Position numbers and translations under genes: made by a program. Shown here in pieces: positions 3,053 through 56,681 of a DNA stretch of 64,000 bases. The notes under the pieces were generated by a model, which ran no database searches, was not told the DNA's origin, and saw nothing but the letters and a program-made list of their open reading frames with translations. Each line of letters begins with the position of its first letter. The first letter of the stretch is position 1. Source of the DNA: a phage; the sequence record PZ809289.1; one strand, written 5' to 3'.

Positions 3053-3613
3053 ATGTGCCAAGGAACGGCCCTCAAAGGAAATACTATGAAATTTTTAACC
3101 CCTATTTATCTAACCTTAATGCACGCCTTCGCTGAACGCGCCATTGAACGTTTAGACTCAGACCAATATACCTGGTATGAACCTACTTCACGAATGCAAG
3201 AGTTTGGTACTCTTCGTCTTGATGGCGGTCGACAAACGGGTAAAACAAGTGCCATTGCGCAGTTTGCTGCGGATTGGGTTTCCAAAGGTAATGATGTGAT
3301 TGTTATGTCGAGTTCTTCGCATCGCTCGCGAGAAATTTGTAATATAATAAAACAGGTTTCTAAGGCACACCCACATCTCCAAGTCGAAGGTCCCGGTTTT
3401 GTTGTCTATGATACCGTGCGCAGTTTCCTTGATGAAGACAATTTCCATAAGTATCGTGGACTATCTGTTACTCGATTATTGATTATTATCGAAGAGCCAA
3501 TGCGCCTTCCAACGATGGATAAGTTCTATGAAGCTTACCAGGTAATGATTAATAAATTTATGTGCCAAGGCGACAAGCCTTTGCCTCTGTTCTTTGTGAT
3601 AGGAATGCAATGA
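3053..3613 (+). CDS. Hypothetical protein with P-loop-like GRQTGKTS motif (186 aa; alternative start 3086)
   Basis: ORF with RBS AAGGGA before ATG 3053; second RBS AAGGAA before ATG 3086; Walker-A-like DGGRQTGKTS. Confidence 0.55.
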   Translation: MCQGTALKGNTMKFLTPIYLTLMHAFAERAIERLDSDQYTWYEPTSRMQEFGTLRLDGGRQTGKTSAIAQFAADWVSKGNDVIVMSSSSHRSREICNIIKQVSKAHPHLQVEGPGFVVYDTVRSFLDEDNFHKYRGLSVTRLLIIIEEPMRLPTMDKFYEAYQVMINKFMCQGDKPLPLFFVIGMQ

Positions 3614-3906: not shown

Positions 3907-4117
3907 ATTGACAATTGAAGGCTCTGATGAAGCTCTGAAGATGTTTGTTGACTGGTTCCATGAACAAGGCGAGCATGGCTTTATGGAATGTTGGGATGGC
4001 GGACAATGGAATGGTAAAGAAACCGTTTATCCTAGCACATATATCTCTGTTCGTGGTGGATATGATGGGATTCATTTAGTTGAATATGATATTGCATCTG
4101 ATGAGGAAGTGAAATGA
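3899..4117 (+). CDS. Hypothetical acidic protein (72 aa)
   Basis: ORF overlapping upstream stop; acidic composition typical of T4 early proteins. Confidence 0.5.
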   Translation: MSKLTIEGSDEALKMFVDWFHEQGEHGFMECWDGGQWNGKETVYPSTYISVRGGYDGIHLVEYDIASDEEVK

Positions 4118-4392
4118 TTGAAGATATCAAGGGTTATAAACCGCATACCGACGATAAAATCGGTAAAGTGAATGCTATCAAAGATGCTGAAGTTCGTCTT
4201 GGGTTAATGTTTAAAGCTCTAGAAGAAGAACATGTTACCTATTATATGAACTTAGATACCGAAGAGGTTTCTGAACAAGAACTAGACCAGGCTCATGAAC
4301 GCATTACCCAGATTCGTAATGCAATTGACCGTCTTAAAGAAGCTAGTATGTGGGCTTGTCGCTCTGTGTTCCAACCAGAAGAAAAGTACTAA
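4114..4392 (+). CDS. Hypothetical protein (92 aa)
   Basis: ATGA start/stop coupling with upstream ORF. Confidence 0.5.
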   Translation: MIEDIKGYKPHTDDKIGKVNAIKDAEVRLGLMFKALEEEHVTYYMNLDTEEVSEQELDQAHERITQIRNAIDRLKEASMWACRSVFQPEEKY

Positions 4393-4396
4393 AGCA

Positions 4397-4425
4397 GTTT
4401 ACATCTCCTGTAGGTATGATACTAT
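4397..4425 (+). promoter_or_regulatory. Early promoter with stem-loop (PeSL-like) upstream of regB
   Basis: GTTTAC 4397-4402, TACTAT 4420-4425, CCTATCAAC box, inverted repeat ATCTCCTGTAG/CTACAGGAGAT around the SD. Confidence 0.6.
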
Positions 4426-4453
4426 AAACCTATCAACTACAGGAGATTACAAA

Positions 4454-4912
4454 ATGTCAGAAATTAATTCAGAAGTATTCATCCGCCGCAACAAATTACG
4501 TCGTCAGTTCGAAACCGAATTCCGTGAACTGAATGCGTCCATCAAAAAAGCCGCCATTAAGAGCGGAGTCCCAGCCTTCTTTATTAAGTACTCTAATCAC
4601 TTGTTGGACCGTGCTATCCAACGTGAAATCGACGAAAAATACGTTTTTGCTTTATTCAAGCAACTCCATAACCATGTTAAAGAAATTCATGAATTTTTAA
4701 TCCAGGAACCTCTACCTGATGTAGAATCCGAAATTGTCCCTGGTAAAGTGTATCGTCCATTGCGTCTCGAAATTACCGATAAAACCTTATGGCTAGGTAT
4801 GACAGTAGACCGTAAACATCCTGATAAAGGATACTCATTAAAATGTCGTATGGCATTTGTTAACTCTAAACGTTTAGAAGGTAAAACCAGCACGAAAGTA
4901 ATCTATCTTTAA
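4454..4912 (+). CDS. regB: RegB sequence-specific endoribonuclease
   Basis: MSEINSEVFIRRNKLRRQFETEFRELN...HLLDRAIQREIDEKYVF...LEITDKTLWLG closely matches T4 RegB (about 152 aa). Confidence 0.9.
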   Translation: MSEINSEVFIRRNKLRRQFETEFRELNASIKKAAIKSGVPAFFIKYSNHLLDRAIQREIDEKYVFALFKQLHNHVKEIHEFLIQEPLPDVESEIVPGKVYRPLRLEITDKTLWLGMTVDRKHPDKGYSLKCRMAFVNSKRLEGKTSTKVIYL

Positions 4913-4924
4913 TAATGAGGTCTC

Positions 4925-5464
4925 ATGAAAAAAGTATTAGCCACTTTACTATTGACAGTTAGTATGTCTGCCTATAGCGTAGAGCCTACTTTCAACAGTG
5001 AGCAACTCGACAATTTGCATTATGCATATGCTTTCGGTGAACAATACCAAAAGTCGGGAAAGTTCAAAGAAACCCCTAATCAAAAAGGATTAGGATATAT
5101 TATGGCCGGATTACTATGGCAGGAATCATCCGCCGGAATTAATCAAGGTTTAAATAAAGATAAGCACCATGCTTATGGCATGTTCCAAAATTACTTGCCT
5201 ACGTTAAGAAGTCGTGTTCAACAGGTAGGTTGGAAGATGTCTGACAAAGAAATAATTCGTATGGTCCAAAAACGACAGAACAGTGCCTCTTGGGCCTACA
5301 TTGAGCTGTCTTATTGGATTGATGTTCACAAAGGTGACCTGAGAAAAGCGATTGCTTCTTATAATGCGGGCTGGAACGTCAAAGCAGGCAGTAAATATGC
5401 TTCTGAAGTTCTAGAAAAGGCCAATTATCTAAAATCTAAAAAGATGTTTGAGGCGGTGTATTAA
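4925..5464 (+). CDS. Secreted lytic-transglycosylase-like protein (SLT fold), 179 aa
   Basis: N-terminal signal peptide MKKVLATLLLTVSMSAYS; catalytic-type E-S motif (LLWQESSAGINQG) and AYNAG motif of family-1 lytic transglycosylases. Confidence 0.7.
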   Translation: MKKVLATLLLTVSMSAYSVEPTFNSEQLDNLHYAYAFGEQYQKSGKFKETPNQKGLGYIMAGLLWQESSAGINQGLNKDKHHAYGMFQNYLPTLRSRVQQVGWKMSDKEIIRMVQKRQNSASWAYIELSYWIDVHKGDLRKAIASYNAGWNVKAGSKYASEVLEKANYLKSKKMFEAVY

Positions 5465-5821
5465 ATGATTAAGCAGATGACTATAGCGCTTATGTTGATT
5501 GCTCCGGGAGTATTAGCGTCACAAGTTGGTGATAGTAATAATTCAATTGTCGAGTATGCTACCCGTACAGCAAAAGATTATTGTCATCCGAGCAATACTG
5601 AATGCATTATCGAATTCAGTTCAAAAATCACAGCTGCTTTTAAAGATGGCCAGAACGACGTAGAGCATCGCCGAATGAAAGAGAAAACTCTTTCTAAAAG
5701 ATACGAGCAACGTCTAAACGTTACTGAATGTATTCCATCTGATAAAAAGTACAAAGAAATGTGCGCGTCTATGGTAGACAGACTCGTTGACTCATACAAC
5801 CGAGGATTAAACTCTAAATGA
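5465..5821 (+). CDS. Secreted/periplasmic hypothetical protein (118 aa)
   Basis: Signal-peptide-like N-terminus MIKQMTIALMLIAPGVLASQ; TAAATG coupling. Confidence 0.55.
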   Translation: MIKQMTIALMLIAPGVLASQVGDSNNSIVEYATRTAKDYCHPSNTECIIEFSSKITAAFKDGQNDVEHRRMKEKTLSKRYEQRLNVTECIPSDKKYKEMCASMVDRLVDSYNRGLNSK

Positions 5822-6285
5822 TTATTGATTATATTAAGGGCGATATCGTCGCCCTGTTTCTTCAAGGTAATAATGTTGCACACGGGTGCAACTGTTTCCA
5901 CACAATGGGTTCAGGTGTAGCTGGGCAATTGGCTAAGGCTTATCCGCCTATTCTCGCTATCGATAAAACTACTTATTTAGGCAATTTGGCAAAACTTGGC
6001 ACGTTTACTCAAGCTACAGGTAATAATGGCCAAATTTGCTATAATTTATATACCCAATACGAACCAGGCCCTAATCTTGATTATGGTGCTTTAGTAAACT
6101 GTATGATAGAATTAAATCAACAAGCAAAAGGTCTTTTGTTTAAACCAAGAATTTATATCCCTCGCATTGGTTGTGGTATTGCTGGTGGTGATTGGGACAA
6201 GGTTTATCAATTGATTAATTTGTTTACTCCTGATATTAATTTAGTGGTGGTAGATTATGAAAGCCCATTACCCGCATCCGTTTGA
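5818..6285 (+). CDS. Macro-domain protein (155 aa)
   Basis: Motifs VAHGCNCFHTMGSGVAGQLAKA (N-terminal Gly-rich ADP-ribose-binding loop) and IPRIGCGIAGGDW (C-terminal macro motif). Confidence 0.65.
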   Translation: MIIDYIKGDIVALFLQGNNVAHGCNCFHTMGSGVAGQLAKAYPPILAIDKTTYLGNLAKLGTFTQATGNNGQICYNLYTQYEPGPNLDYGALVNCMIELNQQAKGLLFKPRIYIPRIGCGIAGGDWDKVYQLINLFTPDINLVVVDYESPLPASV

Positions 6286-6660: not shown

Positions 6661-7398
6661 ATGGCAAAGGAATTCCATTATAATTACTTGACTGTAATAA
6701 AAACCCATAAGGCAAATTATTACTATGTAGGTAAACACTCCACTGATAATCTTTCAGACGGGTATTATGGAAGTGGTACGGTAGTTAAAAATATTTGTAA
6801 AAAGCATCCTTATAAAACTCGTATATTAGAATTCTTCGAATCTGAAGAAGAGGCGTATGCCGCCGAAATTCCTTTAGTTGAAAAGGCTAAATTAAAATAT
6901 GGTAAGCATTCTTTAAATTTTGCTGATGGCGGAAGAGGTAAAAAGAAAGGAACCAAATTATCTAATTTAACTAAACAGAAAATGTCTAGGTCTAGAAAAG
7001 GAGTTAAATGGAGCAAAGCCAGAATAGAAGCTTCTAAATTCACCACTTCTAATAAAGGTTTAAACCATTATTCCAATAGAATAGGATTTAGTGATGAGCA
7101 TAAAGCTAAAATAGGATTAGCCTCTAAAAAATTAAAAGGATTTAAACATAGCGCTGAAACCATAGAAAATATGAGTAACGCCAAAAAGGGCAAAAAGAAT
7201 CCCATGTACGGTAAAAAGGGCGCTATGGCAGGAAAACCTTCTCCTATAAGAAACGAATCTTGGAAATTTTACGATGAATTAAAACTCTTATGGGAAGAAT
7301 CCAATAAGCCTTCAGCATATATGTTTAAAAAGATAGCTATAAGCAAAGGTTATCCTAATTGCTCTTATAGAGGAGTTGTATTTAAATGGCAAGCTTGA
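6661..7398 (+). CDS. GIY-YIG homing endonuclease (Seg-like) with NUMOD3-type repeats
   Basis: YNYLTVIKTHKANYYYVGKHS GIY-YIG core; repeated NPMYGKKG-type motifs; inserted just upstream of tk. Confidence 0.75.
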   Translation: MAKEFHYNYLTVIKTHKANYYYVGKHSTDNLSDGYYGSGTVVKNICKKHPYKTRILEFFESEEEAYAAEIPLVEKAKLKYGKHSLNFADGGRGKKKGTKLSNLTKQKMSRSRKGVKWSKARIEASKFTTSNKGLNHYSNRIGFSDEHKAKIGLASKKLKGFKHSAETIENMSNAKKGKKNPMYGKKGAMAGKPSPIRNESWKFYDELKLLWEESNKPSAYMFKKIAISKGYPNCSYRGVVFKWQA

Positions 7399-35062: not shown

Positions 35063-35563
35063 ATGAAAAAGTTAATTATCGCAATGAGTATGCTCCTATC
35101 AGGTTGCGCGGTCCAATATGGTGATACAGTTTCGGCCGATGAAGTTGGTAAAGCTCGTATCGCAGCTGAACAGAAACAATTCGATGGCGAAATGAAATTC
35201 CGTGCAGGTTCTGGACTTGTGTACACCCGAGCTAATAATCAATGCGGTAATAACTGTGCAAAATATGCTCAACAAGAAATCGAATTCCAACGTGAACAAG
35301 AGTCCAAGCGTGAAGCGGTACTAGCCAAACACCAGGCAGAAATGAAGCGTCAAGATGATTTGTACAAAAAGCAGAAACTGTATGCGATGTGCGTAAACCA
35401 TATCAATCTACAGATTTCCATCCACGAGGCTCGTTATTACGAAATGCTCGAAACCGAGAGCTTCGGTAAAGCTCGTGATTATAAGAAACAAATCGATAAG
35501 CTCAAGACCAAAGTACCGGCGGCAATAGAACAGTGTATTGAAATCGGTAAAGATAAGATTTAA
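35063..35563 (+). CDS. Predicted lipoprotein with coiled-coil (166 aa)
   Basis: Lipobox LLSGC after signal sequence MKKLIIAMSM. Confidence 0.55.
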   Translation: MKKLIIAMSMLLSGCAVQYGDTVSADEVGKARIAAEQKQFDGEMKFRAGSGLVYTRANNQCGNNCAKYAQQEIEFQREQESKREAVLAKHQAEMKRQDDLYKKQKLYAMCVNHINLQISIHEARYYEMLETESFGKARDYKKQIDKLKTKVPAAIEQCIEIGKDKI

Positions 35564-43630: not shown

Positions 43631-43924
43631 ATGAAAAAGTTATTAATCGCAGCAATCCTTACAGTAGCATCATGTGGCACAGCTCCAGTTACGGCTGGAT
43701 TGGATAAAGACCTTTGTGAATGGTCTATGACTGCAGACCAAGAATCGGTTGAACATCAGATTTATGCCGATATCATGAACATCACTAAACGCGACCGCCC
43801 TGATATGGCTAAAGAAGTGTCAGACCAATTAGCTTCAGGTGGTGTTATGCAATATAACCGGAATTTGTATTGTGATGCCAATTTCGATAACAAAAATATC
43901 GTTAAAGAGGTGACAGGTGAATAA
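43631..43924 (+). CDS. Predicted lipoprotein (97 aa)
   Basis: Signal sequence MKKLLIAAILTVASCG with lipobox; RBS GAGGAG. Confidence 0.55.
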   Translation: MKKLLIAAILTVASCGTAPVTAGLDKDLCEWSMTADQESVEHQIYADIMNITKRDRPDMAKEVSDQLASGGVMQYNRNLYCDANFDNKNIVKEVTGE

Positions 43925-56420: not shown

Positions 56421-56681
56421 ATGAAATATATTAATCGTTCTATTGCAGCTCTCGTATTAGCAGTTTCGTTGGTTGGATGTACTGATGCTGATAATGCTAC
56501 CCGTGTATTGGATGCAAATGGCTACGAACAAATCCAAATCACAGGATACAACCTATTCGGCTGTTCTGAAGATGATTTCCAACGTACAGGCTTTATTGCT
56601 GTGGGTCCGACAGGTAAAAGGGTTGAAGGAACAGTTTGTTCTGGGTTATTCTTTAAAAAGTCGACCATTCGATTTGATTAA
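56421..56681 (+). CDS. Predicted lipoprotein (86 aa)
   Basis: Signal sequence with lipobox LVGC. Confidence 0.55.
   Translation: MKYINRSIAALVLAVSLVGCTDADNATRVLDANGYEQIQITGYNLFGCSEDDFQRTGFIAVGPTGKRVEGTVCSGLFFKKSTIRFD

Follow-up and report, generated by a model that had tools for sequence, protein, structure and literature searches.

Two adjacent open reading frames (ORFs) at 4925–5464 and 5465–5821, both on the + strand of a 64,000-nucleotide stretch of phage DNA (record PZ809289.1; this whole stretch is called the window), raise the question of whether a T4-like phage sends a wall-cutting enzyme into the periplasm early in infection, and of what the second product, annotated as a "valyl-tRNA synthetase modifier", would do beside it. 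An original prediction, made from the bare sequence, had placed a signal-peptide-bearing lytic-transglycosylase-like enzyme in the first frame and a second secreted protein in the other; both frames exist as described, with 179 and 118 amino acids (aa) respectively. The 3-kb stretch around the first one is 93–97% identical to the Dhakavirus T4-like phages Bp7, JS10, WG01 and IME08, and the window is that of a T4-like phage of the genus Dhakavirus (Bp7/JS10/WG01 group). Because of this identity and of a gene order shared with Bp7 and T4, ORF 4925–5464 is assigned by sequence as the orthologue of T4 vs.1 (phrog_600, E-value 2e-66), its product being 97–99% identical to the Dhakavirus orthologues and ~63% to T4 Vs.1 (UniProt P13311); ORF 5465–5821 is likewise assigned as the orthologue of T4 vs (phrog_1256, E 2.7e-34). 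Neither gene had been identified as such in the prediction. The joint explanation that best fits the observations, and that is considered probable, is that Vs.1 would be a pre-replicative, Sec-exported periplasmic enzyme of the GH23/family-1 type, made with an exported Vs as one periplasmic module.

Export of both products is predicted from their N-termini. Vs.1 begins with MKK, VLATLLLTVSMSA and A-Y-S, followed by VEP, whereas Vs begins with MIK, QMTIALMLIAPG and V-L-A, followed by SQ; the predicted Sec/signal peptidase I (SPase I) signal peptide of Vs.1 covers aa 1–18 (MKKVLATLLLTVSMSAYS; 4925–4978, + strand), with the cleavage site placed by heuristic and conservation, and that of Vs, recognised in the same way, also covers aa 1–18 (MIKQMTIALMLIAPGVLA; 5465–5518, + strand). 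The mature proteins are predicted at ~161 aa, 18.6 kDa and an isoelectric point of 9.4 for Vs.1, and at ~100 aa and 11.5 kDa for Vs. The rule behind these calls, which is a heuristic and not SignalP, looks for a positive n-region, an uncharged hydrophobic core of 8–15 residues, small residues at -3 and -1, and then a polar mature start with a charged residue soon after. It is passed by 6 of the 171 ATG-initiated ORFs of at least 60 aa in the window, namely vs.1, vs, two or three lipobox proteins and the orthologue of Spackle (43631–43924; PHROG name "spackle periplasmic"), which we take to be an experimentally established periplasmic protein of T4; RI, which uses an uncleaved signal anchor, fails it.

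The same tripartite pattern is present in all 42 relatives of Vs.1 and all 26 of Vs that were aligned, and in T4 Vs.1 and T4 Vs, while individual residues vary freely; each of 57 distinct Vs-family sequences begins with a predicted signal peptide. In one Vs clade (loci L029, L033, L034, L035 and L049, where the gene is the ORF right after vs.1) the N-terminus reads MKKLFVLLVV.ALSGC, with the lipobox LSGC replacing the SPase I site, and these proteins are predicted to be lipoproteins rather than soluble periplasmic proteins. A lipoprotein assignment was also considered for Vs.1 and was rejected, since the h-region cysteines found in some relatives are preceded by I, F or L and not by G, A or S. 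Export of Vs.1 is thereby judged highly probable, and the signal peptides that had been proposed for the two frames hold at the level of prediction.

Other features of Vs point to the same compartment. All its relatives match PF26829, and in the alignment of 26 of them four cysteines (C40, C47, C89 and C100) are invariant. The AlphaFold2 model consists of four helices, with the N-terminal 22 residues disordered or of low confidence, and places the cysteines at the two turns between helices, suggesting a pair of hairpins that are each closed by two cysteines. A Foldseek comparison of this model with the PDB returned generic helical bundles only (E of at least 1.9), and in BFVD it matched only other Vs proteins and a "Lipoprotein" of a Cronobacter phage. 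No homology or shared fold was found between Vs and the known inhibitors Spackle, Ivy, MliC and PliG, the PliG complex 4g9s being present in the PDB library; in hhalign the Spackle orthologue and Vs reach a probability of 5% with their signal peptides alone aligned, and are not homologous.

The alternative that survives best denies that these N-terminal segments work as signal peptides: Vs and Vs.1 would both stay in the cytoplasm, Vs would bind host valyl-tRNA synthetase (ValRS), while Vs.1 would either be a cytoplasmic protein with no connection to it or a muralytic enzyme that depends on a holin. The classical assignment of the vs product to the ValRS-modifying factor (cited in PMC8076793 from Muller and Marchin 1975 and 1977) speaks for it, as does the fact that export of the two proteins is a prediction. 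Yet the n/h/c pattern with small -3/-1 residues is kept in 42 of 42 Vs.1 and 57 of 57 Vs sequences despite freely varying residues, a lipobox has replaced the SPase I site in one Vs clade, four cysteines are conserved in Vs, and such a cytoplasmic pair is regarded as unlikely. The signal peptides, the lipobox clade and the cysteines of Vs are also at odds with ValRS binding in vivo, for which a cytoplasmic location would be needed while Vs is predicted to be exported. When T4 Vs was produced at full length in E. coli with an N-terminal His tag, it proved insoluble in the cytoplasm (PMC8076793), the behaviour one would expect if an exported protein with disulfides had its signal peptide blocked.

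What vs encodes may then be something other than, or additional to, a cytoplasmic ValRS modifier: a tentative and still doubtful proposal is that its product would be exported to the periplasm and disulfide-bonded, in some phages as a lipoprotein, and would form a conserved two-gene envelope module with Vs.1, for example as inhibitor, activator or targeting subunit. If this is true, the ValRS association, described some 50 years ago, would reflect a locus wrongly assigned to the vs ORF, binding that arises once cells are broken, or an additional activity. T4 Vs is predicted at 11.0–11.2 kDa in its mature form versus 13.1 kDa for the precursor; the factor described by Muller and Marchin in 1977 is said to have been of ~10 kDa, which the mature mass fits better than that of the precursor, a further point against the cytoplasmic reading.

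The enzymatic side of the proposal depends on the four motifs that define family-1 lytic transglycosylases in the classification of Blackburn and Clarke. They were followed in two alignments of Vs.1, the first of 42 relatives (41–88% identity) and the second, wider one of 58 relatives (down to 24% identity). Motif I is W65-Q-E67-S68-S69 (5117–5131, + strand), invariant in the 42 relatives and with its predicted catalytic Glu67 (codon 5123–5125) invariant in both sets, and contains the E-S pair that the original prediction had noticed. Motif II, of the GLMQ type, is G85-M-F-Q88-N89 (5177–5191, + strand), with G85, Q88 and N89 invariant in the 42 relatives. Motif III, S145-Y146-N147-A148-G149 (5357–5371, + strand), had been read as AYNAG; an AYNxG-type motif is indeed there and its Y-N-A-G is invariant in the 42 relatives, but the literal string is not, the sequence being I-A-S145-Y146-N147-A148-G149, that is SYNAG after an alanine. 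Motif IV is Tyr158 (5396–5398, + strand), invariant in both alignments. All four are kept unchanged in 42 of 42 relatives, and E67, Y146, G149 and Y158 in 58 of 58 of the wider set.

At the family level the Pfam SLT domain (PF01464) is matched by 36 of the 42 relatives at E<=0.01 (best E 1.3e-7) and by 25 of the 58 distant ones at E<=1e-3 (best E 2.2e-10). An exhaustive search with the Vs.1 profile collected 498 cluster representatives, mostly single-domain proteins of 160–200 aa. Against sequences of solved structures the 42-member profile gave noise only (metacaspase, E 0.15), whereas the wider profile of 58 relatives matched EtgA, the type III secretion enzyme of enteropathogenic Escherichia coli (EPEC) (8urn_A, E 2e-6, positions 44–170), in an alignment that spans the whole catalytic domain and sets Glu67 of Vs.1 on the W-N-E-S of EtgA; this is the sole significant sequence match of the family to a solved structure. 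The AlphaFold2 model of Vs.1 has a mean confidence (pLDDT) of 87 and a pTM of 0.80, with low pLDDT in the first 20 residues, and its best 14 Foldseek matches in the PDB are all GH23 proteins (MltD, Slt, LtgA and goose-type lysozymes; probability 0.87–0.99). The model supports a lysozyme-like, alpha-helical SLT/GH23 fold with an intact active-site signature. The family-level evidence, from the Pfam matches to the fold, lies well beyond chance. Taken with the motifs, these matches make it very probable that Vs.1 belongs to the SLT/GH23 lytic transglycosylase type, as had been proposed for the first frame.

Since GH23 includes both hydrolytic and transglycosylase chemistries, Vs.1 could instead be a hydrolytic goose-type muramidase, and goose-type lysozymes do appear among its best structural matches (4g9s, 3mgw, 153l and 1gbs) and, weakly, in the profile searches of the PDB. 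Such lysozymes use additional acidic residues, whereas in Vs.1 neither alignment holds an invariant or near-invariant Asp between E67 and G85. The lack of a conserved Asp after the catalytic Glu favours transglycosylase chemistry over hydrolysis of the goose-lysozyme kind; E-S, G-x-x-Q and Y-N-x-G form the signature of family-1 transglycosylases, and EtgA is the only significant sequence match, which leaves a goose-type hydrolase quite unlikely.

The SLT similarity is itself not new: a passage of Nolan et al. (PMC1524935) already reports it as marginal for T4 Vs.1 and cites earlier PSI-BLAST matches in the 2003 review of the T4 genome. With the similarity published in 2003/2006 the core prediction was already known, and its recovery here is a rediscovery; UniRef and several GenBank records also name relatives of Vs.1 "Transglycosylase SLT domain-containing protein". 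The part that might surprise T4 specialists is the predicted export of Vs together with its conserved coupling to Vs.1.

Pre-replicative expression, implied by the early region to which the original prediction had assigned the pair, is supported. A promoter-like site of sigma-70/T4-early type (TTTACA-16-TACTAT, with the TG extended -10 TGaTACTAT), found as a pattern match in a consensus scan, lies upstream of regB at 4398–4425 on the + strand and is the likely start of a regB-vs.1-vs-tk.4 transcript. No late TATAAATA box occurs on the + strand between 688 and 8240, and no MotA-box (middle) promoter directly upstream of regB or vs.1. In T4, vs.1 and vs are listed under early RNA and under the middle protein class in a time-resolved omics study (PMC9697503). 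It is this early-type promoter, the missing late box and the early RNA class in T4 that support the timing.

The timing bears on a further alternative, in which Vs.1 would be a signal-anchor-release (SAR) or membrane-tethered auxiliary endolysin taking part in final lysis. The neighbourhoods of some distant relatives would suit it, as the vs.1-like gene of phage AsFcp_2 stands right after PseT.3/PseT.2 and that of Felixounavirus near rIIA/rIIB and an Rz-like spanin; so would RI of the same phage, which uses an uncleaved signal anchor. SAR endolysins have an uncleaved, weakly hydrophobic segment of about 18–22 residues and late expression linked to a holin or pinholin, whereas the uncharged stretch of Vs.1 measures ~16 residues and is closed by a conserved A-x-S/A site that a charged residue follows, vs.1 is early and not late with no late promoter near it, and the phage already has the e endolysin, as judged from the Bp7 gene map. 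An endolysin of this kind is very unlikely.

In the explanation preferred here, Vs.1 would be made before replication, exported via Sec and relieved of its signal peptide near Ser18. The mature protein would be a soluble periplasmic GH23/family-1 enzyme whose closest relatives are EtgA and other small "specialised" transglycosylases. Its only acid/base catalyst would be Glu67, cutting the bond between N-acetylmuramic acid (MurNAc) and N-acetylglucosamine (GlcNAc) in murein and leaving a 1,6-anhydro-MurNAc end. Vs would be exported alongside as a disulfide-stapled four-helix protein of ~11 kDa and may bind or regulate Vs.1, modulate it or localise it. Since premature lysis has to be avoided when a muralytic enzyme enters the periplasm within minutes of infection, Vs would most likely be a restraint or a targeting subunit, in a control analogous to that of Spackle with the gp5 lysozyme or of EscI with EtgA. 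Local opening of murein, trimming of glycan strands in the long infected state, priming of lysis and interference with superinfecting phage are candidate roles for Vs.1, all put forward with low confidence. The original observation is confirmed and its interpretation upheld in part; the lysis inhibition or superinfection control that it had suggested found no support in this analysis.

Comparison with known systems places this proposal more precisely. T4 Vs.1 and its Bp7, JS10 and WG01 orthologues are the same gene with the same neighbours (regB, vs and tk.4) and differ in nothing of substance. The specialised single-domain lytic transglycosylases of secretion systems, which include EtgA as well as IpgF, IagB, VirB1 and P19, resemble Vs.1 in size (about 150–180 aa), Sec signal peptide (predicted in Vs.1), single GH23 domain and the E-S, G-x-M-Q and A-Y-N-A-G motifs. 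A small partner, EscI, controls EtgA, and the structure 8urn is an EscI-EtgA fusion. In contrast to this group, Vs.1 is encoded by a virulent phage and not beside any trans-envelope machine, has an N-terminal helix with an invariant Gln27 and a family-specific insertion, and is accompanied by a protein unrelated to EscI. Slt70 and MltD (families 1A and 1D), which give the best Foldseek matches, share the fold and motifs of the catalytic domain but carry large extra domains (a superhelical ring, LysM repeats) or lipid anchors, whereas Vs.1 is a bare catalytic domain. For Vs the working analogy is T4 Spackle, a helical periplasmic inhibitor, with its phage muramidase target, the lysozyme domain of gp5: both Vs and Spackle are small, early, signal-peptide-bearing, helical and cysteine-containing proteins predicted to be periplasmic, although they are not homologous and binding of Vs to Vs.1 is a proposal. 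T4 e, T4 gp5, phi6 P5 and phiKZ gp144 are muralytic phage enzymes like Vs.1, with phi6 P5 among its weaker fold matches; they are late, holin-dependent or virion-borne and have no cleavable signal peptide, whereas Vs.1 is early and predicted to be Sec-dependent. One database record names a Vs.1 relative "lytic tail protein", and a virion location was rejected in view of the predicted signal peptide and the setting among early genes.

The two genes are linked in position. In the window regB, the endoribonuclease gene directly upstream (4448–4912, + strand; Pfam REGB_T4, E 5e-69), ends 12 nt before the start of vs.1, whose Shine-Dalgarno sequence GAGG (4917–4920, + strand) was read 4 nt before the ATG. 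The TAA stop of vs.1 abuts the ATG of vs, and the TGA stop of vs overlaps the ATG of tk.4 (ATGA), a macro-domain gene (5818–6285, + strand; Pfam Macro, E 5e-8) that is the last tightly packed one of the block. With spacing this tight, the block is probably translationally coupled. The annotated order in Bp7 (vs.4, regB, vs.1, vs, tk.4, tk.3, tk.2, tk) matches the window, and regB-vs.1-vs-tk.4 is common to the window, Bp7 and T4. In a sample of 70 loci retrieved through Vs.1, a same-strand Vs match begins at the vs.1 stop or a few dozen bases from it in 48; an iterated profile raises to 64 the loci in which a Vs-family gene lies downstream in the same orientation, in most cases touching the vs.1 stop or overlapping it and otherwise within ~1.2 kb. 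In the reciprocal sample of 27 solid loci retrieved through Vs, every contig also carries vs.1. By these counts Vs is a conserved partner gene of vs.1; a direct partnership of the two proteins is a tentative suggestion.

Several observations weigh against the module as a whole or against its parts. Classical biochemistry places the vs product in a complex with cytoplasmic ValRS, and the signal-peptide calls come from a heuristic rather than from a dedicated predictor. The window Vs.1 by itself scores 16 bits against Pfam SLT (E 0.009), below the cut-off of 21.3, and has no direct match among PDB sequences; the Foldseek E-values of its model are weak (0.05–0.5), with TM-scores of 0.4–0.5, and no activity data or functional study was found for the vs.1 family in the literature searched. 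The interaction of Vs.1 with Vs is proposed from gene coupling and a shared predicted compartment. Moreover, no Vs-family match was found in the 2-kb flanks of the vs.1-like genes of Felixounavirus, Ackermannviridae and Angelvirus, which makes Vs probably an add-on of T4-like lineages that the enzyme does not require. In two isolates vs is damaged and vs.1 intact: phage vB_EcoM_005 (L003, 3541–3798) has an in-frame internal deletion of vs that leaves 85 aa and removes the first cysteine pair, and in L035 (3525–3876) a frameshift splits vs in two. This is consistent with vs being non-essential and argues somewhat against Vs as an indispensable antidote. That Vs.1 would be a catalytically dead murein-binding protein or decoy, as the lack of reported activity in the literature searched and the sub-threshold Pfam score might suggest, is least credible of all, given that its active-site motif residues are invariant down to 24% identity, across hundreds of millions of years of divergence, as expected of an enzyme.

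In a tblastn search, relatives of Vs.1 were found in 2,013 of 50,697 phage records, mostly of Straboviridae and also of Felixounavirus, Ackermannviridae and Angelvirus, and the distant vs.1-like proteins retain signal peptide and motifs. In the Angelvirus Aeromonas phage AsFcp_2 (L076, 1031–2519) the vs.1-like gene follows directly after pseT.3 and pseT.2, which we take to be the T4 spanins, with no Vs-family gene nearby; in Felixounavirus it is flanked by rIIB and pnk, with an Rz-like spanin not far away, and in E. coli typing phage 1 (L073, 791–4098) after rIIA/rIIB, near an Rz-like spanin and again with no Vs-family gene nearby. These distant neighbourhoods are a weak hint of a connection with the envelope and with lysis. 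The names given to vs.1 orthologues in databases are varied. Some have been mis-named after the neighbour regB, as "site-specific RNA endonuclease" in the Yersinia phages TG1 and phiR1-RT and as "endoribonuclease" in Salmonella phage selz and Citrobacter phage CF1, and others appear as "C-type lysozyme/alpha-lactalbumin family protein" or "lytic tail protein". NCBIfam has no model for Vs.1 or Vs. Within the coding region of vs.1 a 7-bp perfect inverted repeat (CCTAATC-AAAAAG-GATTAGG, 5075–5094) was picked up as terminator-like on either strand, but shows no convincing run of T and probably arose by chance.

Other genes of the window were characterised along with the pair. Two further ORFs have signal peptides that end in a lipobox, at 35063–35563 (+ strand, LSGC) and 56421–56681 (+ strand, LVGC), and fall in phrog_1754 and phrog_902; with Spackle, vs.1 and vs they are the predicted exported proteins of the window. 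The vs.4 orthologue (4114–4392, + strand), two genes upstream of vs.1, matches the Pfam Acb2/Tad1 hairpin domain (E 1.3e-15), which would make it a cyclic-nucleotide sponge of the anti-CBASS/anti-Thoeris type. The product of tk.4, annotated in databases as "phosphatase", bears a weak resemblance to the ADP-ribosyl glycohydrolase of the DarG antitoxin (NCBIfam E 2e-4, far below cut-off). A vs.8-like ORF at 3053–3613 (+ strand, phrog_1488) has weak P-loop/AAA and terminase-N-like Pfam matches (E 0.02–0.2) and also weakly matches the terminase large subunit of phrog_2 (E 2.5e-4). Between tk.2 and tk lies an ORF of 245 aa (6661–7398, + strand) that is missing from Bp7, WG01, JS10 and most relatives, the megablast coverage ending at about 6666; it is present in vB_SalD_ABTNLS3 and IME540, where it is annotated as a NUMOD3-domain or intron-like DNA endonuclease, and it looks like the insertion of a free-standing homing endonuclease.

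For the biology of these phages, the locus would mean that a muralytic enzyme is exported, by prediction, minutes after infection, and tblastn detects its relatives in some 2,000 records from large virulent phages that infect Gram-negative bacteria (Straboviridae, Felixounavirus and Ackermannviridae). The coupling of vs to vs.1, together with the predicted export of Vs, offers a cheap and testable handle on both genes, and the predicted export of Vs calls into question an annotation that has been copied into hundreds of phage genomes.

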